A stretch of DNA of 25,384 nt from a virus (taxonomy: Duplodnaviria > Heunggongvirae > Uroviricota > Caudoviricetes). Location: the IMG/VR virus record IMGVR_UViG_2718218100_000015; one strand, given 5' to 3'. The translations under genes and the position numbers were made by a program. The notes beneath the pieces are model-generated. The model was not told where the DNA came from. It was given only the letters and a program-made list of their open reading frames with translations, and did not search any database. Positions 4,099-24,465 of the stretch are shown here, in pieces (within the stretch, counting starts at the first letter, position 1; each line of letters opens with the position of its first letter).

Positions 4099-4111
4099 TG
4101 TGCGGCCCTCC

Positions 4112-4435
4112 TTAGTGCAGCGCTGGTTTGTTGAGGTGACGGGAACAAAGTTCATCCATGACCGTCATTCCGAGCAGTGAGAGAACCGGACAGGCTTTAA
4201 GCGGCCCCGACTCCATCAGATCCGAAAGCAACGCGCAGGCAATTTCCAGCCCTCTTTGCTGCCCATGCTGGCGCAGATAGAACCCTTCCAGCTCGCGGGC
4301 TATGGCATCTTCAAGTTCAGCGAGCGTCAGGCCGGAATAACGTTCCTGATGATTGCTTAGAGCCAGCCAGGCACAGGCAACGGCACGGCGATACAGAGCG
4401 GCACGAAGTGCCAGAAGAGATTCACAGCATATCAT
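4112..4435 (-). CDS. hypothetical protein (107 aa) in P4-like early operon
   Basis: ORF whose stop overlaps the primase RBS; chained by overlaps to the upstream ORFs, which suggests translational coupling. No recognisable motif. Confidence 0.45.
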
Positions 4436-4656
4436 CAGGCCACCTCCGCATTCATCAGGTCGTCATGGCAGCGTTGCACCACTCCATCCAGTTGCTCTGT
4501 CATCAGATAAATGAGGGAAACCAGTTGTTCGCATTGGGCACCTGCTGGCTTTTCATAACAGTCCTGCAGGGCTGCCATGCCAGTTACATACTCACCCACA
4601 TTGCGTAAATGTTTCAGCCTTACAACATCGTCGTAGGAAATCTCAAACTGGTTCAT
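4435..4656 (-). CDS. hypothetical protein (73 aa)
   Basis: ORF overlapping the downstream ORF by 1 nt and the upstream ORF by 4 nt; no recognisable motif. Confidence 0.4.
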
Positions 4657-5210
4657 AGCGTCACCTCCCCGGCAGGCAGCCGTGCAGAAAGGGAGAGTAC
4701 ATAATCTCGGACTAGCAAACGGCGCGCGGAACGCTCATCGCAGGAGACAGTGCGAAGCATACAGATGCGGGGGTGAGTGTCAGCACGGCGGATTGCGGCA
4801 AACACAAAGACATATTGCGGGTGTGACGGGGTGAGGATTGTAGCCATGATGGCAGCCTCCAATAAGTAGCGGTTATTGCTACCACCGGAAACGCCAATTT
4901 CACTGGTGGCAGCCCGAACGGGGTTGGCGTAACCGGCCTTATTGGAAACCGGCCAGCCCGAAGGCTGCCCCGCCCGGACTACCATTATCTCGATAGAACC
5001 ATGGTGTAAGCATAAACACCACAGCCCTGAAAATGGTTGTGCCTGAGCTACGACGTAAAAAAAGACGCAAGGGGCGTCAATTGTCGCCAATAAGTTATAC
5101 GGAACGCCAATTCCGGCTGCCGATTTTGCGACAGCGGAAAAACTATACCTGGAAATGACGACAGTAAGCAAGCCAGAATAAAGGTATTTAATGTATGCAG
5201 GTATCATCAT
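4653..5210 (-). CDS. doubtful ORF (185 aa); may be partly non-coding P4-type immunity/leader region
   Basis: Start overlaps the alpA stop (ATGA), but composition is atypical (Cys/Trp-rich, low complexity) and the 5' part (about 4860-5200) looks like structured or intergenic sequence. Confidence 0.25.
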
Positions 5211-5467
5211 GCATCACATCCCCGCCCACGGGCGCTGATGCGGTCCGCCATCCATGCGCTGACCTCAGACTGTGCCCAGGCGACATTTTTACCGCCAAGC
5301 GGGATCTGCTTCGGAAACGCATCGCGGCTGATCAGGTCGTAAACGGTCGAACGGGACAACCCGCATAAGTGCATCACCTCAGGCAGGCGTAAAAATCGCT
5401 CATGATGGTTCGATACAGGAAATAATGGCGCAGCAGGAGCTGGCGCAGACACAGAAATATTACGCAT
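5207..5467 (-). CDS. AlpA/Vis-family prophage transcriptional regulator (86 aa)
   Basis: [32 protein letters not shown]...[14 protein letters not shown] matches the AlpA-type HTH pattern; sits at the head of the leftward operon ending in primase. Confidence 0.8.
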
Positions 5468-6302
5468 TTATCTACCCTCTTTAATTTCCACAACAGTCCG
5501 GATGAATTTATCCGGGTTCAGGTAGTTCCTTATTATGTGTATATAAACCACCTGCGCACGCATTTTTTATTTAGCGTCACATATTGATTTTATGGAATTT
5601 AAAGCCCGATTAAACCATATAAAATGACATAATAAATACCATGCCTGCGGACTATAAATACAGGAGCATTAATAGGAACTACCATTCACCCAGGGTTTAC
5701 TATCCTATGGGTCATTGCACCTGATAGTGCTAACCCCACCGCCAATACAGCAAGGCAGTACAACTTCTACACGAGGCCTTGCATTGCAGGCCCCAATTTC
5801 CGGGCATATTTTTGAATCGCATCCAACTTATAAACATTGGGCCTGCATAAAAACCTTGATATTAAATAACATCACCTTAAATCGTAAAATATATCCGAAT
5901 GAATCCATAAAGAACCGGACAGATCTAGTTTTATAAAAATCAGTATGAAATGCAACACCATGGCCAGAGGCGAAAATGTTATTCCCCGGCAAAAACATGC
6001 AGTCTATTTATGTGCCTGTTGAATACTCCTGAATAAGGGTGAATAGTGGTGAGGAGCAAAAAACAAATAGCTACGAGGAATAAAAAAACCACCCATTATG
6101 AAAAAATACCATAAATAATTTTATTCCCATGTGAACAGTTATGAACAGTCGATGAATACTGCCATGCCAACCCTTCACCTTATAACCTTCTGTATTACCT
6201 ATTTTTTTTACCTAAGTGAATAGTTAAGGTAAGTCTGAAACAGCCTTAGTTAAACGAGGCCTTTTCTGGCTAGCCAAAAGAGGTCCGGGGCGGTTCAGTC
6301 TT

Positions 6303-6320
6303 TGTCTTGTCGCTCGCACA
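6303..6320 (+). promoter_or_regulatory. TGT-N12-ACA dyad, candidate Ogr/Delta-dependent late promoter element upstream of sid
   Basis: tgt cttgtcgctcgc aca at 6303-6320, centred about 80 nt upstream of the sid ATG at 6391; P2/P4 late promoters carry this dyad near -55. Confidence 0.45.
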
Positions 6321-6390
6321 ATGGCGTTCAATGGCAGCTTTGTATGCATCACAGCACAATTGACACCACGACAAACCACTAGGTGCTGAC

Positions 6391-7143
6391 ATGACAATCC
6401 CAGAACAGAACAATAACCCGATCGTTGAAATTTCTATCCCTGTTTCGACGCAACAGGCGCTTGAGAAAGTGAATGCCACCAAATCTGCATGGCTTGAAGC
6501 ACGTCGTCAGCAAAAAGCGGCAGCGGATAATATTGCGACAATCCGCCAGCGCCGCGCTGAAATGGAAGCCACGACGAACGCCCTGAATGAGGAGTGGCGC
6601 ACGCTATTTCGTGAAAGTCAGGGCGTAGTCTCAAAGGAAATGAAAAAACTGCGCACGGAAATTGCGCTGGGACGAGAAACGCTTGAGGATTTTGATGAGC
6701 TGCTGGCGGCTCAGGAAAGCGAAAATGCACTTTTGCCGCAGGAGGCTGCGGAATTAGCCGGAAAGTATATCCACGCGCACGACACCCTTGTGGGTATTCG
6801 CGCAAAACAAATCTGGGAAGATTTTATGCAGTCGCATGGAAAAGCACTAATCCAGACACTAAGCCTGCTCAAATCAACAATGGGCAGGGAAGCCAGCGCA
6901 GTTGTCGGTGTGGTGCATTCAGTTAATGACCCGGACACACTGCTGAAAGATTTTATTCATAAACATATCACCAGACCGGCTCTGACTAACGATGCGATGC
7001 CCGAACAGGACCCCGTGTTTAAACTGGCGGGAGTTGCCCCGGATTATGCGGCCCGTCTGGATTTCAGTAATAAACTCTCTCCAGCAGCTATGCATAAAAT
7101 GAAGGTTCGTCAGGAACGTGCTGAGAAGGAGAAAGCAGTATGA
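6391..7143 (+). CDS. sid: Sid-like capsid size determination (external scaffold) protein (250 aa)
   Basis: Charged/helical 250-aa protein first in an operon followed by Psu-like and Ogr/Delta genes; size and context match P4 Sid. Assignment is by context, not motif. Confidence 0.55.
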   Translation: MTIPEQNNNPIVEISIPVSTQQALEKVNATKSAWLEARRQQKAAADNIATIRQRRAEMEATTNALNEEWRTLFRESQGVVSKEMKKLRTEIALGRETLEDFDELLAAQESENALLPQEAAELAGKYIHAHDTLVGIRAKQIWEDFMQSHGKALIQTLSLLKSTMGREASAVVGVVHSVNDPDTLLKDFIHKHITRPALTNDAMPEQDPVFKLAGVAPDYAARLDFSNKLSPAAMHKMKVRQERAEKEKAV

Positions 7144-7691
7144 TGGCCCGAGTCACTCCAGACCAAGCGCTTATCAGTTTTAGAAATGCCCGTATTCTGT
7201 GGGCTGGACATAGTGAGAGCCGAAAAGCCGTTGAACAACAGATAGAATCACTCCTCACTGCCATGGAAAAACCAGCAGATTATGCTCGACAGCTCGAATT
7301 ACAGCGGGAACATCTGGATGTGCTGAAATGGCAAATTAACTGTGCTGCGCGCGAATGCATTTACTCGCAGCATCAACTGATGGAGGCCTGCACAGAAGAC
7401 GCTCTCAGCAATTTTATGCAGGCGAATGGAGCAGCCCTGACATCTGCACTGGCTCCGTTCCTGAAGGGGCGCGGAGGGGTTGACGTTGCGTCCCGTATAT
7501 TACGCAATGCTCTGGTTCGCCAGCTGGCAATAACACCGCCTGAAATTGCCGGGGATTATCGTATGATTCTGGATGAATCCGGTGTGATGCCTGACCCCAT
7601 GATGGTTCGTGATTGCCAGAGCTCTTACACCCCTGCACAACAACTGCGCTTTCAGCAACGTCTGGATTACATTAACGGCATGCAGGAGTAA
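7140..7691 (+). CDS. psu: Psu-like polarity suppression / capsid decoration protein (183 aa)
   Basis: ATGA overlap with sid; recalled similarity to P4 Psu (KWQINCAAREC, QANGAALTSALAP, YTPAQQ) and size close to 190 aa. Confidence 0.65.
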   Translation: MMARVTPDQALISFRNARILWAGHSESRKAVEQQIESLLTAMEKPADYARQLELQREHLDVLKWQINCAARECIYSQHQLMEACTEDALSNFMQANGAALTSALAPFLKGRGGVDVASRILRNALVRQLAITPPEIAGDYRMILDESGVMPDPMMVRDCQSSYTPAQQLRFQQRLDYINGMQE

Positions 7692-7696
7692 TATTA

Positions 7697-7969
7697 ATGG
7701 CACTTAAATGTCCCGAATGCGGTACGACGGCACACGCCAGAACCTCCGCCTATGAAGCACCATCGGTTAAACGCTCATGGTATCAGTGCCAGAATCTTGA
7801 ATGTTCCTACACATTTACCGCACTGGAAAGTGTGGATACGATAATCATGAAGCCCCGGCGCAATGAACAGGAATCAGAGAAAGCACAAATGCCGGAAAAA
7901 CAACAGCAAACTCTCAATCGCTATGGCTCCGCGTCAAAGCTGTCAAGCCGTCAGCAAATTCCTGTCTGA
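7697..7969 (+). CDS. Ogr/Delta-family zinc-finger late transcription activator (90 aa)
   Basis: CPECGTTAHARTS...YQCQNLECSYTF is the Ogr/Delta C4 zinc-finger signature; GGAG RBS at 7685-7688. Confidence 0.85.
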   Translation: MALKCPECGTTAHARTSAYEAPSVKRSWYQCQNLECSYTFTALESVDTIIMKPRRNEQESEKAQMPEKQQQTLNRYGSASKLSSRQQIPV

Positions 7970-7990
7970 TTAGCAAAAAAAGCCCACGTA

Positions 7991-8017
7991 ATCCCGGTCC
8001 AGTACTGGGATTTTTTA
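7991..8017 (+). terminator. intrinsic terminator after the late operon
   Basis: Hairpin atcccggt-ccagt-actgggat (8-bp stem with one GU pair) followed by TTTTTT at 8011-8016, 22 nt after the delta stop. Confidence 0.55.
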
Positions 8018-8378
8018 CGCCTTTTCCCTGGCTGGCCTGAGAGCGCATGAGTGCATGTCTATAGCGCATGAAAACGCATGATTCTCATGCACCATTTTTG
8101 ACGCGAAAGCCCTTGTGTGGTGGCTTCTGAGACGATTTGCGGAATGCATGAAAACCAGTCTGTTAAGCGAAGCGAGCAGGCGTGGGGGGCTGCGCGCGCT
8201 AAGGGGTTAGATTATAAAATATCAAACGCCGGTGAGATCCATTATTGTGGAACCACCCGAAGGAAGTGTAGAGGCGAAAGTACCCAAAATAATTTTGCAA
8301 ATTATTTAGAAATGAACTGAGCGCTCGAAACGAAATATAATTTCGAGCACCCCAATTAGCAGTTATATTTTTAATGTA

Positions 8379-8945
8379 TTAAACAGGATAAAAACCAGAG
8401 CTTCCATTCTTATTTAAGTTATGGATTTTATTTGCATCATTAATTTTTATTTGGAACGTCGGACCTTTATTCTCAAGAATTACAATCTGGAAATTATAGT
8501 CCCTTTTGATTAATGCGTGATAAAATGAATCACTGAGACTGACGCTATTAACATCCGATAGAGAACCCCCTCTATCTTTATCAAAGTGCGTCACTAATGG
8601 ACTATCAAGCACAACAAATCCAATGAATGGATTCCCTTTTCTTGATAAAAATTCCGCAAAGCAAATGGTAAATATAGCATGCATTACTGCACGGGTACCT
8701 TTACCAAACATTCCTCGGCGTTTCCCATTGATATTAAAGTCATATGTATCTTCGTCAAATCGCACTTTGTTATCTTTAGAATTTTCAAAATTTATATCAT
8801 TCAAAAAGTCTTGCATCGCTATTTCTATATCATACAAATCAGCTACTGTTAAGGAGTCAAAGTCCTCGGCGGAGTATTTAAGTTCGTCAACATCATCTTC
8901 TTTATCTTGTAATGAAGATAGAATGCTATGTTTTGTGTGATCCAT
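8379..8945 (-). CDS. C-terminal ATPase part of a split SMC/ABC-type ATPase (signature-like FGKGTR, Walker-B-like FVVLDSP), 188 aa
   Basis: ATG at 8943-8945 overlaps the upstream stop (TAATG); FGKGTRAVMHAIF...FIGFVVLDSPLVTHFD resembles ABC signature plus Walker B/D-loop; last gene of the AT-rich cargo operon. Confidence 0.5.
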   Translation of the reverse strand: MDHTKHSILSSLQDKEDDVDELKYSAEDFDSLTVADLYDIEIAMQDFLNDINFENSKDNKVRFDEDTYDFNINGKRRGMFGKGTRAVMHAIFTICFAEFLSRKGNPFIGFVVLDSPLVTHFDKDRGGSLSDVNSVSLSDSFYHALIKRDYNFQIVILENKGPTFQIKINDANKIHNLNKNGSSGFYPV

Positions 8946-9535
8946 TAAAAGATTGTCTTTATATTCATAAAGTGATTCAAGAGATGAATGTATTGTTTTA
9001 TATTTTTATCTTCTAACGTCTTAAAATCACTTTTTTCTGATTGATAAATTTCATTAACATCATTTTTTCTTAACATAATTAATTCATGTTCGCGAACATT
9101 AGATCCGATTGATTCAATTAATCCTTTCAGCTGGCTTTTGATTTTCAATTTTTCTGCATTACACGACAAAAAACAATCATCATATGATATTTCATTTTCT
9201 TTTTTTTGCGGTGTATTACAGAACTCACAATAAATATCTGCAAAATTATTTAAATAGAAATTCGCCTGTGATACAACATCTATTCTTTGTAGATCTATAA
9301 AGTATTGGTCTTTAAGAAGACTAAATCTTTCAATGAGTAATGATAAGTATTTTTCCCTGTCACTGATTGAATATAATTCATCACTTAACTCTTTTAATAA
9401 TTGCTTCTTATCATCAAGTGCATCAACAATACCTTTCAATATATCTTTCGATGATTCAATATCTTGCTCTACTTTCTCAAGTTCTCTTGAAACAATGACT
9501 TGATCATATTCAGGATAAATTAATTGCGCTTTCAA
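8945..9535 (-). CDS. coiled-coil middle segment of the same ATPase (196 aa); no ATG, follows an in-frame TAA
   Basis: In the same frame as ORF 9566-10225, separated only by TAA at 9566-9568 and 10 sense codons; heptad-like charged sequence with CEFC...CFLSC Cys pairs. The ORF-track 'start' is TTG. Confidence 0.45.
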   Translation of the reverse strand: MKAQLIYPEYDQVIVSRELEKVEQDIESSKDILKGIVDALDDKKQLLKELSDELYSISDREKYLSLLIERFSLLKDQYFIDLQRIDVVSQANFYLNNFADIYCEFCNTPQKKENEISYDDCFLSCNAEKLKIKSQLKGLIESIGSNVREHELIMLRKNDVNEIYQSEKSDFKTLEDKNIKQYIHLLNHFMNIKTIF

Positions 9536-9565
9536 TTCCTCATAAATATTTGCAATTTGATTTTT

Positions 9566-10198
9566 TTAAAAATATCTTGCTTTTTTATTTGGTTTTTCTG
9601 CTAAGGAGTTAGTATCATCTCTCTGAGTTAAAAGGAATTTAAATTCAGACTTTCTTTTTGTCTCCTCGCTAGGAATATCAGAAAGAATTAACGACTTCTC
9701 AGTTAACACTCTTAATTCATCAATATAAAAAAATTCAAAAACATTATTAAGATTAAATTTATGAAGAGTATTACTTAAGTTTGTTCTTACTTTAGCCTCT
9801 TTGAAATTCAACCTACCATAAAAGTATGATGAAAAACTCTTTTTAGACGAAGCACTTTTGGAAAAAACCATCAACAGATTAGCTTCACTAACATTTTCAA
9901 TGCTCGAATCATATAATCTGTAATGGGCGCTATCCTGAAGAGACCTCTCAATTGTCATTACCCTACCTTGAAAATTAAATTCCAGATAGGCTAAATCATA
10001 ACCTTGAGCATGATCGATATCTTTATTTTTTAGTTTTTCACTCCCTAATAAATATCGAATCAAATAATATATGTATGTTTTTCCAGAGTCAGAACCACCA
10101 TATAAAATAGTCAATTTAGAACCAAATTCAATTATAGCATCTAATTTATTGAATCCGGTTACCTTTATTTTTCTGAACGTAAAAAAATTGTCATTCAT
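9566..10198 (-). CDS. N-terminal Walker-A part of SMC/ABC-type ATPase (LmuB-like), terminated by in-frame TAA
   Basis: ATG at 10196-10198 (MNDNFFTFRKIKVTGF...), Walker A ILYGGSDSGKTY at residues 32-41; ends at TAA 9566-9568 with the reading frame continuing downstream. Confidence 0.55.
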   Translation of the reverse strand: MNDNFFTFRKIKVTGFNKLDAIIEFGSKLTILYGGSDSGKTYIYYLIRYLLGSEKLKNKDIDHAQGYDLAYLEFNFQGRVMTIERSLQDSAHYRLYDSSIENVSEANLLMVFSKSASSKKSFSSYFYGRLNFKEAKVRTNLSNTLHKFNLNNVFEFFYIDELRVLTEKSLILSDIPSEETKRKSEFKFLLTQRDDTNSLAEKPNKKARYF

Positions 10199-10649
10199 AA
10201 TTAAATTCCATATCATATTTGCCAATTTTATTTTTTATAATTGATTGCAACTGCTCATCAGGAATATCACTATATAACTTAACCACCAAATTTATATTAT
10301 GCTCCATCTGCGCAACATATTCATTATGTAGAGAATTTGTAAATGCATATGTTTTTTCAGAAGCTTTATATACAAAACCACGATGTGTATAAATTTTTGA
10401 GGCTAGTTCATAGCCTTGCAACAAAGCCAATGATTCTAAAACAATCTCTCGTTTTAGGGCTAACTGAGCATCTCTACGGGGTATTGGAGGATGAAGACTA
10501 ATCTCTTCAGGTAAAAAATCCTTAAGATTTACTAAAATAAAATCAAAACAAATAAGCCGTTCAAGGCTTAATGAAGAAGGATAAATAGCGACGAGCACTT
10601 TCGCCATTCGACATGCCACTTCTAAACTTGAATTATAAATTCTAACCAT
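10191..10649 (-). CDS. small hypothetical protein (152 aa) of the cargo operon (LmuC-like position)
   Basis: ATG at 10647-10649 overlaps the stop of the upstream ORF (TAATG); stop overlaps the start of the ATPase gene; no recognisable motif. Confidence 0.45.
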   Translation of the reverse strand: MVRIYNSSLEVACRMAKVLVAIYPSSLSLERLICFDFILVNLKDFLPEEISLHPPIPRRDAQLALKREIVLESLALLQGYELASKIYTHRGFVYKASEKTYAFTNSLHNEYVAQMEHNINLVVKLYSDIPDEQLQSIIKNKIGKYDMEFNYE

Positions 10650-11266
10650 TATCTCACCGTCCAAATTACTTCACCATCATTAACCAAATGATGGCATATT
10701 CCTTTTTTATCATTTGCTTCACATATTTTTGATAGTACTGAATGTGCAATTGGTGTCAGAACAGCCTGCTTCAAGACTGCATTACACCTAATAAATGCAT
10801 AATTATGGTCTTCATAAAAGACGGGTTCAATTGAAGATGAAATGTAACATTTCAATGCTTTGAATACATCATCTTTAAATACTTCGCGGACAAAAACCTC
10901 AAGCGAAGATGCAAAATAAAAATCATTTCTACTATTATTAAAGTGTCGTCTGTATGGATCATCAAGCTCTAAGAAAGAACTATAAGTTTTATTTCCATGC
11001 TCTGAATAGGCTTGAAGCAGTGCATTAACATATACAGACTCTTTTTTTGAATTGTATGTTGGAATTTCATTTGGAGGGATTCTCACGACATACAGCTCGT
11101 TAAAGTACTTAAAATAAAGGTGTGTATTTGCAATATCATTTAAAATCAATGATAAGGGTAGAGAGTAAAAAATACTAAAATCAAAATCCTCAATATATTT
11201 TTTTATTTCATCATCTAATGGAATATCAATCTTTTTAGTTATTTTTTTGAAATTGCTGAATCCCAT
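10649..11266 (-). CDS. C-terminal portion (205 aa) of putative effector; probably the same gene as 11239-11655 after a frameshift
   Basis: Overlaps the upstream ORF by 28 nt around an A7 run (T7 at 11242-11248 on the plus strand); the two frames differ by 1. Confidence 0.45.
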   Translation of the reverse strand: MGFSNFKKITKKIDIPLDDEIKKYIEDFDFSIFYSLPLSLILNDIANTHLYFKYFNELYVVRIPPNEIPTYNSKKESVYVNALLQAYSEHGNKTYSSFLELDDPYRRHFNNSRNDFYFASSLEVFVREVFKDDVFKALKCYISSSIEPVFYEDHNYAFIRCNAVLKQAVLTPIAHSVLSKICEANDKKGICHHLVNDGEVIWTVR

Positions 11267-11655
11267 GAATCAAGGACTGCTTTTTTAAGCTCGTTTTTAT
11301 TTTTCAATAAATTAGAAAATGTAGTAGATAAATCATAGGGTGCCACAAAAAAGTACTTCTGAGGGATGGGATAATCACCATTCAGAGTAAAATAGATAAG
11401 TTTTCCAAACTCAACTACAACATCAGAGAACCCTAAACTTTTTTTGTACAGTTTGCATTGATAATTATCCCAAGAATAACCTTCTACGTTAGGATCCGAT
11501 TTATATCCAACAACGTCTCTACCTTTATCTCCAGCTCCTCCCAAACGTTCGCTCCACGGGTAATCATCTGATTTACAGACAATAAGCCAATCATGGACAA
11601 ATACCTCCCATTGTTCATCATCCCATGTCAATATTTCCGAAAGTGGTTGAGACAC
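11239..11655 (-). CDS. N-terminal portion (138 aa) of putative effector with Mrr/Cap4-like PD-(D/E)xK nuclease signature
   Basis: GGAGDKGRDVVGY...NYQCKLYKK fits the D-x-G-x-D ... Q-x-K pattern of Mrr-type restriction-endonuclease folds; first gene after the integrase in the cargo slot. Confidence 0.5.
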   Translation of the reverse strand: MSQPLSEILTWDDEQWEVFVHDWLIVCKSDDYPWSERLGGAGDKGRDVVGYKSDPNVEGYSWDNYQCKLYKKSLGFSDVVVEFGKLIYFTLNGDYPIPQKYFFVAPYDLSTTFSNLLKNKNELKKAVLDSWDSAISKK

Positions 11656-11658
11656 AAA

Positions 11659-12840
11659 TTAACTCCTTTTTAGTCTTTCAAATATCAAATTACTGTACCA
11701 GTCCATCATAGACTTCCTTCCACTAAAATATTGAGCATGGTTATAAGTCCCCCTAATAGAATTTTTATCTACATGAGCCAACTGGATTTCAATCCAAGCA
11801 CTCTCAAAACCTTGCTCATGCAGGATTGTAGAAAGGGTATGACGAAAACCATGTCCAGTGACTTTTCCTCCATACCCAATACGCTTAATGGCTTGATTTA
11901 TACTCGCTTCGCTCATTGGCCTATTCGGATCGTTCCGCCCTGGAAAAACATAACGATAGTTCCCTGTCATGATCTTGAGTTCATTGAGTAAATCTACCGC
12001 TTGAGATGATAAGGGCACAAGATGTGGCCTACGCATTTTCATCCTTTCAGCAGGAATTTCCCAAATAGCGTTATCCAGATCAAATTCTTGCCATAATGCC
12101 GCGCGTAATTCGATGGTTCTCACACCCGTAATCATCAGTAATTTCGTGGCTATCTGGACAAGCTTACTCCCGGAGTAACCCTCTAAGGCACGTAGAAAAT
12201 CAGGTATCTCATCAGCTTTTAGGAATGGGAAATGATTGGATTGGTGTACTTCGAGAGCGCTGGAGAGCTCAGCCGCAGGATTGTACTCCGCCCTACCCGT
12301 TGCAATTGCGTAGCGAAACACTTCGGAGCAACGCTGCCGCACTTTGCGCATTTTCTCCAACGCACCACGTTTCTCAATTTTACGCAGAACGTTCAGCAGC
12401 TCTAGCGGTTTAATCTCTCCCACAGGCCTTGTTCCGACATAAGGAAAAATGTCGTTCTTAAACGCTTCCATGATGTCTGATGCATATCCCGCCGACCATT
12501 TAGCAGATTTAAGTTGATGCCACTCTCTGGCTATCTTTTCGAAGGCGTTCTCTGACTCTGTTTGCATAGCTAGCTTTTGCTCTTTTCGAACCTCACTAGG
12601 GTTCTTTCCTTCTGCCACAAGTTTTCGAGCTTCATCACGACGGGAACGAGCATCGGCAAGGGTGATCGTTGGGTAAACACCAAGCGAGATCATTTTGGGT
12701 TTGCCGGCATAGCGATAGCGGAACCGCCAACTCTTGCTTCCATTAGGTTCTATAAGTAATGACAACCCTAGCCCATCTCCAAATGTATAGGCTTTAGCTT
12801 CAGGCTTAGCGCGGCGAATCTGCATATCGTTTAAAGGCAT
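11659..12840 (-). CDS. int: P4-type tyrosine integrase (393 aa)
   Basis: ATG at 12838-12840 (MPLNDMQIRRAKPEAKAYTFGDG...); catalytic region HGFRHTLSTILHEQG ... IRGTYNH; lies 160 bp downstream of a tRNA-Thr 3' fragment in the same orientation. Confidence 0.9.
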   Translation of the reverse strand: MPLNDMQIRRAKPEAKAYTFGDGLGLSLLIEPNGSKSWRFRYRYAGKPKMISLGVYPTITLADARSRRDEARKLVAEGKNPSEVRKEQKLAMQTESENAFEKIAREWHQLKSAKWSAGYASDIMEAFKNDIFPYVGTRPVGEIKPLELLNVLRKIEKRGALEKMRKVRQRCSEVFRYAIATGRAEYNPAAELSSALEVHQSNHFPFLKADEIPDFLRALEGYSGSKLVQIATKLLMITGVRTIELRAALWQEFDLDNAIWEIPAERMKMRRPHLVPLSSQAVDLLNELKIMTGNYRYVFPGRNDPNRPMSEASINQAIKRIGYGGKVTGHGFRHTLSTILHEQGFESAWIEIQLAHVDKNSIRGTYNHAQYFSGRKSMMDWYSNLIFERLKRS

Positions 12841-13002
12841 GTGTATAGGAATCCAGACCGAACAGGAACATATACACAATCCTATACACATTCAGTACCG
12901 GATTCTACTGGATGGTTACGGACTACTATGGACTTAAAAGAATAAAAAATGTTATAAATCAGAGATTTTATGGACTAATACGGACGTTTGAGGAAGTTGA
13001 GA

Positions 13003-13048
13003 TGGTGCCGATAATAGGAGTCGAACCTACGACCTTCGCATTACGAAT
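13003..13048 (-). other. 3' fragment (about 46 nt) of tRNA-Thr(CGU), thrW-like; att-site remnant, 5' half absent
   Basis: Reverse complement reads ATTCGTAATGCGAAGGTCGTAGGTTCGACTCCTATTATCGGCACCA (anticodon loop through CCA end); sequence beyond 13048 does not continue as D-arm or acceptor stem. Confidence 0.75.
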
Positions 13049-13249
13049 TATAAGAATCCGCTTCTAATTCAAAGCATTACCCCATCAACACTGCGCTCAC
13101 ACGTCCCACCACATCAAAACATGTAAAGCCTTGCAAGCCATTGCGAGGCCTTATGTGTCTCAGTTTTGTCCCACCTTGTATTACGACTTGCATAGCCAAT
13201 GAAGATAAACGTGACGACAAACGGCGCAGCAGTCTTCTTTTCTTTCACG

Positions 13250-13795
13250 ACTTCTCCAGCATGCATACCTTTCTGCCATGACTGAAGTGAATGCCTGTTA
13301 TGAGCAAGGATTGGCCCAGATGAATCGCCCTGGACTGTTGCGATCGTGAAGCCATAGACTGGGCCGCAAGCACGGGAGGTTACGATAAAGCGACAGTGCA
13401 GGATGTCATGTTAGGAGCGATAGAAAAACGCTTTGGCGATAAAGTACCGGAACAGTCCATCCAGTGGCTGACAGATAACGGTTCAGCGTATAGAGCGCAT
13501 GAAACACGGCAGTTCGCCAGAGAGTTGAATCTGGAGCCCTGCACAACGGCAATCAGCAGTCCTCAGAGTAATGGAATTGCAGAAAGGTTCGTGAAAACGA
13601 TGAAGGAAGACTACATCGCGTTCATGCCGAAACCGAATGTAAGAACGGCATTGCATAATCTTGCAGTGGCGATCGAACATTACAATGAAAACCATCCGCA
13701 CAGTGCGTTGGGTTATCGCTCTCCGCGAGAATATCGACGTCAGCGGGTAACGTTAACTTAAGATACCCCCCCTGTCTGGAAATAAGGGGGCAAGA
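13250..13795 (+). mobile_element. IS2-group (IS3 family) insertion sequence remnant, right-end portion only
   Basis: Encodes a transposase C-terminus resembling IS2 OrfB; terminal sequence tgtctggaaataaggggg at about 13773-13792 resembles the IS2 right end; left boundary approximate. Confidence 0.6.
13321..13761 (+). pseudogene. IS2-like transposase OrfB, C-terminal fragment (DDE/rve domain tail)
   Basis: Frame reads [35 protein letters not shown]...[25 protein letters not shown]...[20 protein letters not shown]...[19 protein letters not shown]; upstream frame closed at 13321. Confidence 0.7.
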
Positions 13796-13802
13796 ACAAT
13801 GA

Positions 13803-14546
13803 TCAGATTCCCTGGTGAGTAAGAATTTTACTTTCTGAACTCCTCTGAGAGTATTGACTTGGAGAAACACCAAAATAACGTCTAAATACATAAGTAAAGT
13901 ATGAGACACTGGCATAACCACAGACCTTAGCTACTTTACTAATAGGATAACAACGAGTGCTGAGTAAATATTCAGCCATTTGCATCCTCTCATCAAGTAT
14001 GATCTTACTGAATGATACCCCCTCTTCTTTCAATTTCCTCTTTAGTAAACTTTCGCTGAGATATAATCTTGATGATATATCCTTAAGACGCCATGGTGCA
14101 GATAAATCCGTATGAATAATCGTTTTAACTTTAGCCCCTGTGCTTTTCAAACATCCAAACAGAAATACTCCAAATTGTTTTTCAGAAGAAAATGCAGAGA
14201 GACATGTAAAAGCAATAGACTCATCAAAAATTTCTATGTATTCAGCACAGTGATTAGCCCAACTAATTAATCCTTTAATTAAACTGAAGTCAGCAAAGTT
14301 TATTTTTAAATAAGATGGATATTCCCTACAATCAGAAATATCCCTTAAGTTATTAGCTTTCAAATAGCGACTAATAAACTCAGCGCCAAAATCCGCCACT
14401 ATCACTCTTTCAGGATATGTCAGGAAAAAATCTCTAGAGCTAGAGTCGACAAGTACAGATGAACCTCTCTCCAGAAACACACTCTCTTTTCCGAAATAAA
14501 CATCAAAGGACTCCAAAATCAATATAACTGAACATGTAGTTGCCAT
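13803..14546 (-). CDS. AraC-family transcriptional regulator (247 aa), AT-rich, Rns/AggR-like
   Basis: C-terminal HTH_AraC region LSESLLKRKLKEEGVSFSKIILDERMQMAEYLL...ISKVAKVCGYASVSYFTYVFRRYFGVSPSQY; low GC with a long AT-rich upstream region. Confidence 0.75.
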   Translation of the reverse strand: MATTCSVILILESFDVYFGKESVFLERGSSVLVDSSSRDFFLTYPERVIVADFGAEFISRYLKANNLRDISDCREYPSYLKINFADFSLIKGLISWANHCAEYIEIFDESIAFTCLSAFSSEKQFGVFLFGCLKSTGAKVKTIIHTDLSAPWRLKDISSRLYLSESLLKRKLKEEGVSFSKIILDERMQMAEYLLSTRCYPISKVAKVCGYASVSYFTYVFRRYFGVSPSQYSQRSSESKILTHQGI

Positions 14547-15128
14547 ATCATCCCCCCAATTTAACTGAAACCAGGATGAAGTATATGTATATAAAGTTCA
14601 CTTTGCCAAACTTCAGTATAAAAAACCACTAAAAATAGGGTGTGATAAAAAATACCGTAACAATAAAGCAAAGGATTATAAATTCCGTTACAGTTACAAA
14701 TGATACTCAAGAAACAATTCCTTAGGAAAAACTTATTTACAGCCAATAAGTAAGACACTTATATGATATCAAGTTTTCATAAAACATAACTAGGCTAAAT
14801 AGCTGCGCCTAATACCGCTACACTTTTGCCAGCCCATGTTTGCCTCCGGGTATTGACCCCTTCTCTACGCAACTTCAGTTCCCACCACCAACTTTGCGGC
14901 AGCTTTGTAGGATCAATGTCTAAAAGAATAATGGTGACCGATAAGAAAACGACTGAATAACTGCAGATTTTCGCTCAAAACCTTCCTGTCAGATCCATAG
15001 CGAATCAAGTGCTGAATGTCACAGTATCGAACAGAAAACAGTGACGATCTAACCCTTCAAGAATATTCTACGATTGTTCTGTTTAGGAAAAGCAAGACGG
15101 GAAGTCGGGAGATAAGTCATTGATAAAG

Positions 15129-15190
15129 TGGCGGAGAGAGGGGGATTTGAACCCCCGGTAGAGTTGCCCCTACTCCGGTTTTCGAGACCG
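15129..15190 (-). other. 3' fragment (about 62 nt) of tRNA-Ser(CGA), serU-like; att-site remnant, 5' part absent
   Basis: Reverse complement reads CGGTCTCGAAAACCGGAGTAGGGGCAACTCTACCGGGGGTTCAAATCCCCCTCTCTCCGCCA (anticodon loop, long variable arm, T-arm, CCA); upstream sequence does not continue as tRNA. Confidence 0.75.
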
Positions 15191-15273
15191 ACCCGATCAT
15201 CAAACGAAACATAAAATTAGCTCACATTATGAGGAAAGGTATCTTTTTGCGCTATGTAAATTCAAAGGGTTAG

Positions 15274-16143
<870 letters not shown>

Positions 16144-16200
16144 ATCTTCAAGTGGTAAGCATAAACCGCAGCACGATCTTGCATACGACGTGCTACGGTT

Positions 16201-16755
16201 TCATTTATCTCCGGCCGGAAACTTCTTATACAGTGTCGATACACCAACATCATAGATGATCGCTACCTTCTGGCGAGGAATTCCTGCTGCAATTAATCGT
16301 CCGGCCTGCGCCCATTGTTCTGGTGTAAGTTTGGGACGACGTCCACCAATTCGTCCCTGTGCGCGAGCAGCTTCCAGTCCAGCTTTTGTTCGTTCAACAA
16401 TCAGTTCTCGTTCCATTTCAGCCAGGGCCCCCATCACATGAAAGAAAAAGCGCCCCATTGGGGTACTGGTATCAATAGCATCCGTCAGGCTGCGAAAATT
16501 AACGCCACGTTCGCGCAACTCCTCAACCAGAATGACCAGATGCCGCATACTGCGCCCCAGCCGATCCAGTTTCCAGACAACCAGAGTGTCACCTGCCGAT
16601 AATGTCCTGAGCAGTTTTTTCAGTCCCGGCCTTTCGGACTTTGTACCGCTTATCTTGTCTTCAAAAATCAGCTCGCATCCTGCACAGTTCAGCGCATTAC
16701 GTTGTAGATCTGTGTTCTGGTCATTTGTTGACACACGTACATAGCCAATAAGCAT
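16201..16755 (-). CDS. pin: Pin/Hin/Gin-family serine DNA invertase (184 aa)
   Basis: MLIGYVRVSTNDQNTDLQRNAL... with catalytic Ser in VRVST and a C-terminal HTH; very close to e14 Pin as recalled; adjacent to the invertible segment. Confidence 0.9.
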   Translation of the reverse strand: MLIGYVRVSTNDQNTDLQRNALNCAGCELIFEDKISGTKSERPGLKKLLRTLSAGDTLVVWKLDRLGRSMRHLVILVEELRERGVNFRSLTDAIDTSTPMGRFFFHVMGALAEMERELIVERTKAGLEAARAQGRIGGRRPKLTPEQWAQAGRLIAAGIPRQKVAIIYDVGVSTLYKKFPAGDK

Positions 16756-16821
16756 GGTAGATCTCCCTGACAAAAGCAGGAATGATGCCATTTGCTCGTT
16801 ATTTCTGCATTTTCATAAACG

Positions 16822-16852
16822 TTGGTTTGGGAGAAGGTGCTCCAGCTATTGG
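16822..16852. repeat. left crossover site (inverted repeat) of the Pin invertible segment
   Basis: ttggtttgggagaaggtgctccagctattgg is the inverted complement of 18574-18603 with one single-base indel; lies 67 bp upstream of the pin start. Confidence 0.6.
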
Positions 16853-17067
16853 CGTTCCGTTCTTCTGGCGTCCGCTGCAATGCCAAATACTGTAATCGAC
16901 AGCTGGTCCTGTATGGTGTTTTGAAGTTCAACGGCGCGAAATTCTCTGCCACTGATTATCCTGTGCTGGCGAAAGTGTTTCCTTCGCTGGTATTACCTGA
17001 AGCCGCGGTGATTTCATTCGTATCTGGGATGACGGGCGAGGTGCAGACGGTGGTCGCGAATTATTAA
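16822..17067 (+). pseudogene. alternative tail-fibre C-terminal variable module (silent orientation)
   Basis: Frame starting inside the left crossover site encodes ...KFNGAKFSATDYPVLAKVFPSLVLPEAAV..., typical of a tail-fibre tip; would be joined to the constant part after inversion. Confidence 0.4.
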
Positions 17068-17284
17068 GCTGGCAGGCAGCTACAAACTTTTCTCAGTTTG
17101 CCGGAATATAGGCGAAGGTGCGGGACACGCAATTAACTTTCATGATGGCATCGCCGGAAATCAGCCAGGATTTTCACGATTTAATTTCACCAGTAACTCT
17201 GTGGGTGATGGTGTGAATTTTGTTGCAGTCAGACGCGAATATTGCATTTAACTTTCTGGTGAGGCTAAATAATGAAACCTGTTT

Positions 17285-17793
17285 TTGATGAAAATGGCTG
17301 GCTACAGTGCCGGGCGATATGCGTTGTTTTATTATGATGCTGAAACATCTGAGTATACGGGCTGGTCTGATGAATATATTAATACTGGCGTAAGTATGCC
17401 GCCTGTTCCACTGGTATTGACCTGGCGAAAACATTCGGGAAGAGTGGCAGTATTTACAGGTAAGGATGGAGCCATGAAGAAGACCATCGCAATGAGACTG
17501 TTTACTCAATCGAAATGGCGCAGCTGTTACAGTGGATTATATCGGTGCCATCAAAGACGGTTATGTCACGATTTCACCGTTAACGCCATACGATAAATGG
17601 ATGGTGAGAAATGGTGACAGACACTGAGGCACAACACAGTGCCGCAGTAGACGCGGCAGAAGCACAGCGCCAATCACTGATTGATGCAGCAATGGCTTCC
17701 ATTAGTCTGATTCAGCTGAAGTTACAGCCGGACGGAACTGACTCAGGCAGAACAACCCGACTTAACGCCGTGCTGGATTACATTGACGCGTGA
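17285..17793 (+). pseudogene. tail fibre assembly (Tfa-like) gene, frameshifted
   Basis: N-terminal ...FYYDAETSEYTGWSDEYINTG... and C-terminal ...EAQHSAAVDAAEAQRQSLIDAAMASISLIQLKL...TTRLNAVLDYIDA lie in different frames; the expected ...APD(V/I)IW... tail is in yet another frame downstream. Confidence 0.5.
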
Positions 17794-17835
17794 CGGCAAC
17801 AGATACCAGCACGCGCCGGATGTCATCTGGCTGAA

Positions 17836-18247
17836 CTGCCGGAGCGTAGGCCATTCAATATCTGGCGCACCGGAAGTATCGACCAGCTCCAGTGCGTCCA
17901 GATAATCCAGCCACAATTATATTGCGTCAGTTCGTCACCTTTCAGACGACCAATAGCCGCTTTACGGGCCATTGCTTACTGTTCATGTATTCGTTGGCCT
18001 GGTTAATTAGTAGCTGTCTTTCTGATTCAGTAATTTCAATAAGCTCTTCATGCGTGGTGAATATCTGCCACGCAGGCAGCCATCATCTCCGGCAATACGG
18101 ATTTTCCTTGTGCGGTTCAGCCATAAACTCACTGATAATATTTGATTACTTCCTTAGCGTCTGATAAATCCCATCCCTCTGATTATATTTATCAATCATA
18201 TCACAGGAAAAAGCATTATGCCTTGCGCTATAAACATATTCGTCCAT
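17836..18247 (-). pseudogene. second, convergent Tfa-like gene (minus strand), degenerate
   Basis: Manual minus-strand translation gives MDEYVYSARHNAF... from an ATG at 18245-18247 and a C-terminal WLDYLDALELVDTSGAPDIEWP at 17836-17913, with frame breaks between. Confidence 0.3.
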
Positions 18248-18465
18248 ATAAATCACCCTGAATAAAATTACTCACCACAGCCCACCAACTGTAATTCATC
18301 GATACCGTGTCGCTGGTTGATGACGTTCTGTAAGCAGAATTAAAGCGTTAACGTTGGCCTTCTGCAGTCATCACGAACCTCGCCAGCGCCTAAAGGCGCA
18401 CCGCCATCACCAGAATGAGTAAGCATGGCGCAGTCCGCTTTTTGGGAAAGGATGCTGAATGTAAT

Positions 18466-19250
18466 TCATTGTGCGTCGATAATGTCGGCGTAACCGCACA
18501 CGACCATATTGCAGGATTTCCCGTTGAATTCACCATCATACCACTGGCAAAGAGGCATGCCGGACGACCCGCCCAATAGCTGGAGCCCTTCTCCCAAACC
18601 AAGGTTTTGAAGAGCCGTTTTCACCGTGCCGTCCGATTTGATATCGCCAAACGGATTCTTGCGGCTCAGGTATTCAACAGCAAACCCCGATCCCAGCAAT
18701 TCAACAAAACCGGGCAGATCACCATTATCAAGCACATCCCGTTGCGTTTTATCACTTACAAACTGGGCCAGAGCTGCAGCAATAAAGCTGGCCTGCCGAA
18801 TAACCTTATTGACTTGCGCACTGGATGCTTTCCCTGCTGTAAATCCGGATATAAGCGCAGGCAACGCTTCCCATTCCTCCTGCGACATAACATTGGCATT
18901 TCGATCAGTTGCAAACGCTTTAAAGTCATTTTTCGCCATCAGAGTAATACTCCCCATGCCCCTACATCAAAACCACTGATGAATTCGTTATCCATATCAA
19001 AACCAAAAAATTTAGAGCCTTCCGATGGAGTTTCCACCGAAGGTGTTTCAATGCCCCCCGCCCATACCCCGGCGGCTTTTACTGTTAGATACCCCTGTTT
19101 AATTGCCGCAATTAACTCACGCGATACATCTGAAATATCAGTATCAGGAAAGACCCAGACCGATATCGTCATGTCCTGGTTATCGATGTTGGCGATCCGA
19201 CGCATCTGCTCACGGTCAAAGTTAACCATCTGTGCGGCGATGTTTTTCAT
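18466..19250 (-). pseudogene. tail-fibre constant-region fragment fused to the first 21 codons of lambda-type P; internal frame break near 18939-18957
   Basis: ORF 18939-19250 starts MKNIAAQMVNFDREQMRRIAN (lambda P N-terminus) then switches to unrelated sequence; ORF 18466-18957 reads through the right crossover site. Confidence 0.45.
18574..18603. repeat. right crossover site (inverted repeat) of the Pin invertible segment
   Basis: ccaatagctggagcccttctcccaaaccaa; inverted copy of 16822-16852; lies inside the tail-fibre constant-region reading frame (...[12 protein letters not shown]...). Confidence 0.6.
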
Positions 19251-21755: not shown

Positions 21756-22612
21756 ATGAAGAAAGCAGCAATTTTAATTGATGCGGGTTTTTTCATGCAG
21801 CGTGTTCATGCTACGCATCGTAAACACTTCGCCGAGCATGAACTGACTGTGCAATGCATAATGAAAGTAATATGGTCAATGGTTCTTTCCCATCTTAATG
21901 GAAAACGTCAATCACAAGAACGTAGGGAACCGCTTGAGCTTTATAGAATTTACTTCTATGACTGTCCACCACTCGACATTCAAACACGCCTTCCACTTCC
22001 TGAGCCTGGCAATAAGACGCCTGGTCGCAAGAATTTCAAACTCGAAAAATCATATATTCTGAGAACGGAGCTGCATGAAGAGTTAAGAAAAACTCGAAAA
22101 ACAGCCTTAAGATTAGGGAATCTTGTTGATAATAAGCGATGGCAACTAACTACATTCTCCCTTGATGCTCTGATGAAAGGAACGAAAAAATGGGATGAAC
22201 TGACAAATGATGTTTTTACTATGACATCAAACAAAAACAAGTTGATATCAAGCTAGGGATGGATATCACGACTTTAGCTTATGAAAAACTTGTTGATGTA
22301 ATTGTCCTTGTTGCTGGGGACTCAGACTTTGTGCCTGCCGCCAAACACGCCAGAATTAAAGGTATTGATTTTATTCTTGATCCACTAAGACAGAATGTTA
22401 CCCCATCACTGTCAGAGCACATTGATGGAGTTCAGTCATACAGCTTGATATCAGGACTTGCCGATGCTTTACATGTTGAGCCAGACCCGGCACCTGACTG
22501 GTGGGAAGATCGAAAAAAAGGCAAGCCTAGAGGAAAAAACAATAGCGGTAAACGCAGGTATGGAAACACTCAAGCTGAGTCTGCAAAGAAACATCAAAGA
22601 AATAAACGATAA
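21756..22612 (+). pseudogene. NYN/LabA-like (PIN-fold) domain protein in the position of lambda rexAB; split into 166-aa and 117-aa ORFs by a frameshift near a T5 run
   Basis: ORF1 begins MKKAAILIDAGFF; the second frame reads ...KQVDIKLGMDITTLAYEKLVDVIVLVAGDSDFVPAAKHARIKGIDFIL; the frames overlap across 22211-22256 with T5 at 22213-22217. Confidence 0.55.
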
Positions 22613-22733
22613 TCCCATCAACCCGGCCACCGAGCCGGGTTTTCTTTGCCTCTCGATCGCCCCACCTAAAAACACATAATGAACCGCCCCGGAAATCCTG
22701 GAGACTAAACTCCCTGAGAAAGAGGTAAACAGG

Positions 22734-23060
22734 ATGACTAAAAATACTCGTTTTTCCCCCGAAGTCCGTCAGCGGGCGATTCGTATGGTTCTGGAAAGTC
22801 AGGATGAATATGACTCACAGTGGGCGGCAATTTGTTCCATTGCCCCAAAGATTGGCTGTACGCCGGAGACTCTGCGTGTCTGGGTTCGCCAGCATGAGCG
22901 GGATACCGGGGGCGGTGATGGTGGGCTCACCAGCGCTGAACGTCAGCGTCTGAAAGAGCTGGAACGTGAAAATCGTGAACTGCGCCGCAGTAACGATATC
23001 CTTCGCCAGGCTTCCGCTTATTTTGCGAAGGCGGAGTTCGACCGCCTCTGGAAAAAATGA
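22734..23060 (+). CDS. IS629 transposase OrfA (108 aa)
   Basis: [60 protein letters not shown]... with HTH and leucine-zipper-like C-terminus. Confidence 0.85.
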
Positions 23061-23947
23061 TGCCACTGCTGGATAAGCTGCGTGAGCAGTACGGGGTCGG
23101 ACCGGTATGCAGCGAACTGCATATTGCCCCGTCAACGTATTACCATTGTCAGCAACAGCGACATCATCCGGATAAACGCAGTGCCCGTGCGCAGCACGAC
23201 GACTGGCTGAAGAGAGAGATACAGCGCGTATACGATGAAAATCATCAGGTGTACGGTGTGCGTAAAGTCTGGCGTCAGTTGTTACGGGAAGGAATCAGGG
23301 TGGCCAGATGTACAGTGGCACGTCTCATGGCGGTTATGGGACTTGCCGGTGTTCTCCGGGGTAAAAAGGTCCGTACGACCATCAGCCGGAAAGCCGTTGC
23401 CGCAGGCGACCGCGTAAACCGTCAGTTCGTGGCAGAACGACCTGACCAGCTGTGGGTGGCTGATTTTACTTACGTCAGCACATGGCAGGGCTTCGTCTAT
23501 GTGGCGTTTATCATTGATGTGTTTGCCGGATACATCGTGGGGTGGCGGGTCTCATCGTCTATGGAAACGACATTCGTGCTGGATGCGCTGGAGCAGGCGT
23601 TGTGGGCCCGTCGTCCGTCTGGCACCATCCATCACAGCGATAAAGGCTCTCAGTATGTGTCACTGGCCTATACGGAGCGACTAAAAGAAGCCGGATTACT
23701 GGCATCAACAGGGAGTACAGGCGACTCGTATGACAACGCGATGGCTGAGAGCATCAATGGTCTTTACAAAGCGGAGGTAATACACCGTAAGAGCTGGAAA
23801 AACCGTGCAGAAGTGGAACTGGCCACACTAACGTGGGTGGACTGGTATAACAATCGACGATTGCTGGGAAGGCTGGGCCATACTCCTCCGGCAGAAGCAG
23901 AAAAAGCTTATTATGCTTCCATCGGAAACGATGATCTGGCAGCCTGA
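23057..23947 (+). CDS. IS629 transposase OrfB (DDE integrase-like catalytic domain), expressed as OrfAB by -1 frameshift
   Basis: ...[31 protein letters not shown]...[11 protein letters not shown]...[19 protein letters not shown]... shows the D, D, E catalytic spacing; overlaps orfA in the -1 frame. Confidence 0.85.
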
Positions 23948-24115
23948 GTTCACAGATAAAACACTCTCCAGGAAACCCGGGGCGGTTCATAACCAATTGT
24001 ATTTATTTTAAAATTAATAGGTGCAACTCACTAAACAACGCAATTCTGATCTCTCGATCACCTCCCAAGCCACACAACCCTGCAAAAAATAAATCTATAT
24101 AAAAAACATACAGAT

Positions 24116-24405: not shown

Positions 24406-24465
24406 ATGGATGCACAAACACGCCGCCGCGAACGTCGCGCAGAGAAACAGGCTCAATGGAAAGCA
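24406..24465 (+). pseudogene. N: lambda-type antiterminator N, first 20 codons only
   Basis: [20 protein letters not shown] then the frame reads into unrelated sequence and stops at 24519. Confidence 0.8.

Follow-up and report, generated by a model that had tools for sequence, protein, structure and literature searches.

The 25,384-nucleotide (nt) stretch of viral DNA analyzed here (IMG/VR record IMGVR_UViG_2718218100_000015, Caudoviricetes; hereafter the window) corresponds to the thrW locus of Escherichia coli O157:H7, where a P4-like satellite prophage, Sp2, and a lambdoid, lambda-like prophage remnant, Sp1, stand in tandem. The window contains 3′ pieces of two tRNA genes, thrW and serU. 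The thrW piece is the attR attachment (att) site of Sp1, and its first 17 nt double as the proximal repeat of Sp2. The serU piece is the core of a fossil attR from the serU locus, which is carried with adjoining host DNA as phage cargo beside a regulator gene that is very probably patE. We consider it likely that these features are explained as a whole by the tandem insertion of Sp1 and Sp2 at thrW and by a scar that would have arisen through imprecise excision of a prophage from serU and would then have been spread among phages by recombination.

In the Sakai genome (NC_002695.2), the gene order at this locus is yagP, Sp2, the thrW piece, Sp1, thrW, and proA. The window starts just past yagP and ends with the stop codon of the Sp1 integrase pseudogene. 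Most of it, the last 1,393 bp included, is 99.9% identical to Sakai, and the interval 12000-16200, which spans both tRNA pieces, is 100% identical to Sakai, EDL933, and more than 280 other complete genomes. At least 80% of this interval is present in 283 complete genomes and at least 80% of 14851-16200 in 414. Both tRNA-piece junctions recur in hundreds of complete genomes and are therefore no assembly artefact.

The thrW piece (thrW′, 13003-13048, minus strand) matches Sakai thrW, a tRNA-Thr gene with the anticodon CGU, at 46 of 46 nt (nt 31-76, A31 to CCA). The serU piece (serU′, 15129-15190, minus strand) is an exact copy of the last 62 nt of K-12 serU, a tRNA-Ser gene with the anticodon CGA (C29 to CCA). 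The chance expectation in this window is ∼1e-23 for an exact 46-nt match and ∼2e-33 for an exact 62-nt match. ARAGORN found no complete tRNA gene in the window, and an Rfam search of 12900-15300 at a permissive threshold returned just sub-threshold, partial tRNA-like matches at the serU piece. An initial annotation, made from the sequence, had described both pieces as 3′ fragments without 5′ halves that start near the anticodon loop, run to the CCA end, and represent integrase att cores; the exact alignments bear this out, end coordinates included, and place both starts at the anticodon stem-loop. Absent from that annotation were a third thrW relic at 127-142, the intact thrW just past the window, and 278 bp of authentic serU flank, each of which is described below.

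The length of the thrW piece is accounted for by the integration chemistry of Sp1, the remnant of a temperate phage of the SfIV/SfV type, as 46 nt is the natural extent of the attP core in the SfIV-type family of thrW phages. In the SfIV genome, int is followed by 14 nt, an identical 46-nt thrW core, an arm that is 98% identical to 13049-13173, and then cargo genes. As a whole, 13003-13173 is 98% identical to SfIV 23073-23243, which lies directly after SfIV int. The SfIV-type attP arm of the window belongs to a phage segment (13049-13324, assigned by homology) that also comprises sequence found upstream of int in lambda-like phages, with 13114-13305 being 87.5% identical to lambda- and 21-type phages. 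The integrase of Sp1 (intD pseudogene, 24410-25384, plus strand) is of the SfIV type as well. It is missing its N-terminus (324 versus 387 residues), and 305 of the 306 aligned residues are identical to SfIV Int (99%). Within tRNA genes, SfIV/P22-type integrases prefer the anticodon loop and P4-type integrases prefer the T loop, and the att classes of Sp1 and Sp2 agree with these preferences, the Sp2 integrase using the part of thrW from the T loop to CCA. Since the Sp1 integrase recombines at the anticodon loop of thrW, a 46-nt copy is left at the far end of the prophage. The complete thrW of Sakai is located 14 nt past the stop codon of the Sp1 integrase, that is, by homology it starts 15 nt beyond the right end of the window, and it lies on the same strand as the 46-nt piece. 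Sp1-like prophages without Sp2 occur at thrW in strains 2824, TH9F11, and 2017.03.02CC. In 2824 and 2017.03.02CC, the same 46 nt and the same arm are present and the core abuts the chromosomal sequence ...GGGGTAACTACTTGATTTAAA. The initial annotation had expected the thrW copy next to intS, the integrase of Sp2, to be the complete gene and had proposed that a later deletion truncated it at 13048. The intact gene, however, stands at the other end of the array, beside the Sp1 integrase, and because the 46-nt length equals both the SfIV attP core and the Sp1-only attR, no deletion is needed.

Sp2 (143-13002, minus strand) is labeled "prophage Sp2, P4-like phage" in the Sakai annotation, and its assignment agrees with Rfam and PADLOC matches. 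It is a clean insertion into the 46-nt thrW copy and has a 17-nt repeat at its two ends (127-142 and 13003-13019). The distal repeat, thrW″ (127-142, minus strand), was found by local alignment. Its 16-nt sequence, TGGTGCGATAATAGGA, is that of the 17-nt T-loop-to-CCA core TCCTATTATCGGCACCA less one C, and a 16-nt match has a chance expectation of ∼2e-4. The flank ...ACTTGATTTAAA abuts the 46-nt core in Sp1-only strains, whereas in the window it abuts the 16-mer, which is followed by Sp2. Moreover, 61-126 of the window is chromosomal flank that is also seen at Sp1-only attR sites. The Sp2 integrase gene, intS (11659-12891, minus strand; annotated start equivalent to 12840), encodes a P4-type tyrosine integrase with the Pfam domains Arm-DNA-bind_3, Phage_int_M, and Phage_integrase, and it reads away from the thrW piece as in P4-type elements. 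Related integrases (85-90% nucleotide identity) are found directly beside intact thrW in strains H227, H228, H230, and H231.

Sp1 and Sp2 thus each have their own integrase and their own repeat, and each type occurs alone at thrW elsewhere. Of the two origins that the initial annotation had offered, tandem accretion or IS (insertion sequence)-mediated rearrangement, the former therefore stands, with both prophages at thrW. Tandem insertion seems to have taken place on more than one occasion, because diverged P4-like integrases (86-91%) are present at the same tandem junction in other lineages (H224-H226). Either order of arrival of Sp1 and Sp2 would yield an identical final structure. There is experimental precedent for the use of a resident prophage end, as Sp10 integrated in tandem with the resident prophage Rac, using the attR of Rac as attB (Asadulghani et al. 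2009, PMC2669165).

The second tRNA piece is joined to DNA of a different locus. Adjacent to it, 14851-15128 (minus strand) is, by homology, host DNA of the yodB-serU spacer, the chromosomal stretch that directly follows serU. Across ∼5,400 E. coli genomes, K-12 included, the native serU flank matches these 278 bp at 96-99% identity (E. coli-wide counts here and below are drawn from 5,426 complete genomes). Over 279 positions, there are 3 mismatches with strain M7424, 3 with the phage record ev099, and 10 with K-12. The possibility that the flank is a conserved phage sequence foreign to native serU loci is ruled out by its presence in K-12. In the native serU loci examined, homology always begins at the position equivalent to 14851; as native-locus homology ends there, just 278 bp are demonstrably host DNA.

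On its other side, the serU piece meets a serU-type attP phage arm (15191-16143, plus strand) that contains a LEM-3-like GIY-YIG gene (annotated at 15370-16143; Pfam). The boundary at 15190/15191 falls within 1 nt of the attR boundaries of genuine serU prophages, namely the lambda-like prophage of M7424, the prophage of MB15, and Sp14 of Sakai. MB15 and six further genomes have the GIY-YIG arm next to serU′, from which the native flank continues into yodB. The GIY-YIG/pin arm of MB15 forms the right end of a complete ∼39-kb contractile-tail prophage at serU, at whose other end intact serU is followed by cargo genes and the integrase. Taken together, the native B′ flank, an arm known from genuine serU prophage ends, and the shared boundary show an attR origin, and 14851-15190 with the GIY-YIG arm is a full P-O-B′ attR junction of the kind made at serU.

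The serU piece and its flank form one end of a larger module (13325-15191). At its left edge is the orfB remnant of an IS2-group (ISEc48-like) element (13325-13798, plus strand; Pfam rve and rve_3; "ISEc48 partial" in Sakai), followed by an AraC-family regulator gene, ECs_0287 (13803-14546, minus strand; Pfam HTH_AraC and HTH_18), and the AT-rich upstream region of that gene (14547-14850, 34% GC), which meets the serU flank on its right at a unique joint, 14850/14851. The IS2-group remnant and the AraC-family regulator had both been recognized in the initial annotation as lying between the tRNA pieces, and the remnant does mark the module boundary. Z0321 has been described as an RpoS-dependent regulator of prophage CP-933H in O-island 8 (PMC2907692), and PatE is encoded by z0321 (PMC10877973). 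As ECs_0287 is the sole gene annotated as AraC-family in the Sp1/Sp2 region of Sakai, it is very probably patE (Z0321), an activator of acid resistance and repressor of the LEE (locus of enterocyte effacement); this identification draws on the statements of the two papers and on the annotation.

The same module is present in the phage genome records ev099, mEp332, and PhiR70_1 at 98.8-99.3% identity. Its homology to ev099, mEp332, and the prophages at att-lambda and argW begins exactly at 13325. In ev099, the order is J, lom, tail fibres, a short arm, serU′, the flank, the AraC-family gene, the IS remnants, the integrase, and the excisionase, so that the module occupies the slot between tail genes and integrase, which is the place of the b region in lambda. 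The attP of ev099 is unannotated; we infer that it falls in the ∼300 bp that separate the integrase from the IS remnants. Where the module-carrying phages have a short arm next to serU′, the 60 nt compared match the arm of M7424 at its genuine serU attR without a difference. The 62-nt core is exact in the window, ev099, and FORC_081 copies, and mEp332 has one change in the 75 nt compared. Among prophages, the module is located at the integrase/att end at att-lambda (bioA-ybhB), at argW, and at thrW without Sp2, and it was also found in one island context. Captured host DNA is therefore seen in the phage records as a hybrid att site with contiguous host sequence, the viability of these phages being taken from the records. 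In the E. coli-wide set, the patE region is present in 645 of 5,426 genomes, 534 of which keep its junction with the serU flank. The remaining ∼110 carriers are without all or part of the flank, which is cut at various points; both of the cases examined are IS1 insertions.

These findings bear on the role of the serU piece at its present location. The initial annotation had each tRNA fragment border one element here. This is correct for the thrW piece but not for the serU piece, which sits within phage cargo with neither a serU integrase nor an intact serU: there is no tRNA gene in the window and both of its integrases are thrW types, while the intact serU of Sakai is 2.4 Mb away, beside the Sp14 integrase. 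The serU piece is not an att site of the thrW locus and instead belongs to a ∼340-bp duplicate inside phage cargo. The native serU region of Sakai is occupied by Sp14 (zinT, yodB, Sp14, serU, mtfA) and is otherwise undisturbed, and for this reason we regard the relic as a duplicate and not as a translocation.

The initial annotation had also offered a different history, in which two islands, one at thrW and one at serU, were joined by IS-mediated rearrangement and the integrase-side thrW later lost its 5′ half by deletion. The facts that led to this proposal are sound, as an IS2-group remnant does lie between the two pieces, and thrW and serU are indeed ∼1.8-2.4 Mb apart in K-12 and Sakai. Nevertheless, we find such a history extremely unlikely. 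The 46-nt length is that of the SfIV attP core and the Sp1-only attR, the intact thrW is at the opposite end of the array, the serU region of Sakai is undisturbed with only ∼340 bp of serU-locus DNA in the window, and phage records as well as prophages at att-lambda and argW contain the same IS-patE-serU block. The normal synteny of both loci in Sakai (gpt-proBA-thrW...yagP and zinT-yodB-Sp14-serU-mtfA) likewise led us to reject a chromosomal inversion or translocation that would link thrW with serU. What remains of the proposal is that IS activity clearly shaped the left module edge at 13324/13325.

We favor an origin by imprecise excision, which is an established route by which host DNA enters phages (e.g., PMC13492144). 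An ancestral prophage at serU would have excised imprecisely in the manner proposed by Campbell, as for the lambda bio and gal phages, and its attR, along with 278 bp or more of host DNA, would thereby have become phage sequence. The module would then have moved among lambdoid and SfV-like phages by homologous recombination, in which the ∼340 bp of homology (the 62-nt core plus the flank) with any serU-resident prophage could serve, and integrase/attP modules would have been exchanged during this spread. The shared homology would account for two different phage arms meeting the module exactly at the core boundary. The aberrant joint could be placed at either of two positions. patE and the IS remnant could be host DNA from beyond the flank, with the joint at 13324/13325, or they could be older phage cargo near the integrase end, with the joint at 14850/14851. 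We slightly favor the latter because patE is completely absent from the native serU loci searched. MB15 likewise has cargo between serU and the integrase and offers a parallel.

The scar could also have been produced within a single chromosome, with no packaging, by ectopic recombination or gene conversion between a thrW prophage and a serU prophage, where one crossover would lie in the shared tail/GIY-YIG homology and the other would be illegitimate. The ingredients are available, since related GIY-YIG/pin prophages are known at both thrW and serU, and O157 genomes contain a copy of Sp1 together with a native serU attR. However, the identical module with the same edges is found in lambda-like phages that have a different tail arm and at two further sites, and a phage-borne origin followed by spread takes fewer events. 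In addition, a single reciprocal exchange would invert or delete megabases. We thus regard ectopic recombination as an unlikely source of the scar.

The explanation by imprecise excision has several points against it. Among the 5,426 complete E. coli genomes, none has patE beside native serU, and the pre-capture state was found nowhere; since no pre-capture genome was found, the aberrant-excision step is read from the scar. A scan of GTDB species representatives for PatE detected no relative, and the contexts of the exact PatE protein are nearly all O157-type thrW loci plus one island, with no donor locus among them. Host collinearity was not seen beyond the att flank, as no patE carrier sampled continues otherwise. 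The left edge of the module is a second difficulty. It falls at the same nucleotide (13324/13325) in all carriers but abuts differing DNA, which is the terminus of a second IS3-family element in ev099, mEp332, and the att-lambda and argW carriers (7000/7001 in locus L011) and attP-proximal phage DNA in the thrW carriers. We see no route that leads from either state to the other. Third, relatives at thrW with other cargo (locus L006) and at ssrA (locus L008) keep just 16-18 nt of the serU core, and the simple model leaves these short cores unexplained. In a comparison of 5975-6020 of both loci with 15173-15200 of the window, the part kept is the serU anticodon stem-loop beside the GIY-YIG arm, and it is followed by unrelated cargo, which at ssrA includes a type II restriction-modification pair. 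The sequence past the partial core was considered as the P′ arm of the MB15 serU phage, with which it gave no match. Finally, Sp1 and Sp2 of Sakai showed no circularization, replication, or packaging (PMC2669165), so that no present-day att function is demonstrable for either prophage.

It should be noted that a relic this well preserved could be kept by selection, either as a working secondary att site (e.g., for the Sp14 integrase) or as regulatory or promoter DNA of patE. The core is exact in the three copies named above, the flank differs from ev099 and M7424 by only 3 changes in 279 positions each, and the relic shares the strand of patE, 305-645 bp upstream of the gene. From lambda biochemistry, though, integrase is expected to work poorly, unless Xis is present, on a site of the attR type whose B′ arm comes from the host. 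The flank is also dispensable, given the ∼110 patE carriers that have lost all or part of it, and no Sp1-Sp14 rearrangement was seen in the genomes sampled, in which no search aimed at inversions was made. Therefore, even though the genome also contains Sp14, whose integrase is of the serU type and which can circularize (PMC2669165), we consider retention for function very unlikely.

A broader role for the relic can also be envisaged. The ∼340-bp serU attR relic might act as a portable homology or att cassette that moves the patE module between unrelated temperate phages as they meet serU prophages, an idea that we find rather unlikely. We hold the same view of its counterpart in O157, where RecA or the Sp14 integrase would use the relic to drive exchange of Sp1 (0.31 Mb) with the Sp14 att sites (2.67-2.71 Mb). 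If true, the fossil would explain the spread of an acid-resistance regulator of enterohemorrhagic E. coli (EHEC) across phage lineages and sites.

A comparison of the serU sequences of Sakai provided further observations. The functional serU of Sakai (47173-47262 of locus L026, which is Sakai 2665000-2714000) differs from that of K-12 by a compensatory change of one pair in the variable arm (GAGTGGGGGCAACTCCACC in Sakai versus GAGTAGGGGCAACTCTACC in K-12). The gene was rebuilt by the Sp14 attP, such that the sequence of a host tRNA-Ser was altered by a phage while the helix was left unbroken. The Sp14 attR and the window relic both keep the K-12-type variable arm and not the phage-supplied variant, as expected of the chromosome-derived half of an attR. 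The relic and flank (0.31 Mb in Sakai) and the Sp14 attR (2.668 Mb) form a 337-bp pair that is 97% identical, inverted, and 2.36 Mb apart. Such a pair is a possible substrate for large inversions.

Other features of the two prophages are as follows. Sp2 contains a primase, C4 and isrK immunity RNAs, sid/psu/delta-like genes, a decayed Lamassu operon, and its integrase. The C4 antisense RNA (4902-4989) and isrK (5058-5135), both on the minus strand in the immunity region, were detected with Rfam and are expected of a P4-like element. The Lamassu anti-phage operon (PADLOC; 8379-11655, minus strand) directly follows the integrase gene. In this operon, LmuA is split into two open reading frames (ORFs; 11239-11655 and 10649-11266), LmuC spans 10191-10664, and LmuB is split into three ORFs (9566-10225, 8945-9535, and 8379-8945), while the Sakai annotation applies a pseudogene label to the LmuB stretch only (equivalent to 8379-10198).

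In Sp1, the pin DNA invertase gene (16201-16791, minus strand; Pfam Resolvase and HTH_7) lies beside an invertible tail-fibre segment. This pin-controlled segment (16812-18563) is in the orientation opposite to that of Sakai, at 96.3% identity. The resolvase-type ORF at 16201-16791 is uninterrupted, so that invertase activity may persist, or may have ceased only lately, in the otherwise dead Sp1. The window also has 1,888 bases at 22104-23991, near the Sp1 immunity region, that are not in Sakai. These consist of an IS629/IS1203-type element (orfA, 22734-23060; orfB, 23057-23947; ALIL frameshift pseudoknot, 23015-23131) and a further ∼577 bp that include an NYN-domain ORF fragment (22259-22612).

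The two parts of this structure differ in what they add. The thrW part restates a known array and corrects the idea of a deletion. The serU part would be a clean natural case of imprecise excision shaping the cargo at a prophage end, which is usually just assumed, and here the old attR and its host flank can still be recognized immediately upstream of patE, whose product regulates acid-resistance and LEE genes in EHEC. The block recurs at several integration sites and in separately recorded phages, and it thereby suggests a concrete, testable route for the spread of patE. The serU piece also serves as a caution that a tRNA fragment within a prophage is not necessarily the border of that prophage.

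Overall, this is a real structure that is largely described already and that combines standard site-specific integration with one inferred aberrant excision. The tandem Sp1/Sp2 array is annotated in the Sakai record and mentioned in PMC2669165 and PMC8190617, the latter of which refers to a "compound prophage" at thrW. Sp1 and Sp2 of Sakai (CP-933H and its neighbor, in the O-island 8 region of EDL933) have the same order and near-identical sequence at thrW; in the window the pin segment is flipped and 1,888 bp are extra, and the published annotation is without the serU piece or the host flank. We found no report of the serU relic or the host flank in Sp1/CP-933H or in phages in open-access text, where no search was aimed at the serU relic.

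The closest relative of the Sp1 att region is the thrW module of SfIV, which belongs with the SfV/SfII/P22-type anticodon-loop integrases and has the same core, a 98% identical arm, and a 99% identical integrase. The layout is also alike, with int 14 nt from the core (at the thrW end in Sakai) and a cargo slot across attP. The cargo of SfIV consists of gtr O-antigen genes, whereas that of Sp1 consists of the IS remnant, patE, and the serU scar. Unlike SfIV, Sp1 has an integrase that is missing its N-terminus, and Sp1 does not excise. Sp2, in turn, resembles satellites of the type of P4 at leuX, in which the integrase gene follows the tRNA sequence directly and points away from it, and a short repeat (17 nt in Sp2) covers the T-stem, acceptor, and CCA. 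P4-like satellites and Sp2 share the P4-type primase, the sid/psu/delta genes, and the C4 RNA. A 2002 survey by K. Williams is said to have defined integrase classes by their sublocation within tRNA genes, with the T-loop assigned to P4-like satellites. In contrast to usual P4-type sites, Sp2 has its proximal repeat within the 46-nt thrW copy of a prophage and not in a complete gene. Sp10 at Rac is likewise a second element that uses a partial site at the end of a resident prophage, but the elements are different.

The serU scar itself is best compared with the lambda gal/bio transducing phages, which likewise carry a hybrid P-O-B′ att site with contiguous host DNA in its native orientation, in the region from the tail-fibre genes to att/int. 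Unlike in those phages, just 278 bp are recognizably host DNA, the event would be ancient, the integrase/attP of the carriers has since been swapped (lambda-, thrW-, and argW-type), and the case is known from sequence. The serU fossil is a new example of a familiar kind of scar rather than a new kind of system.

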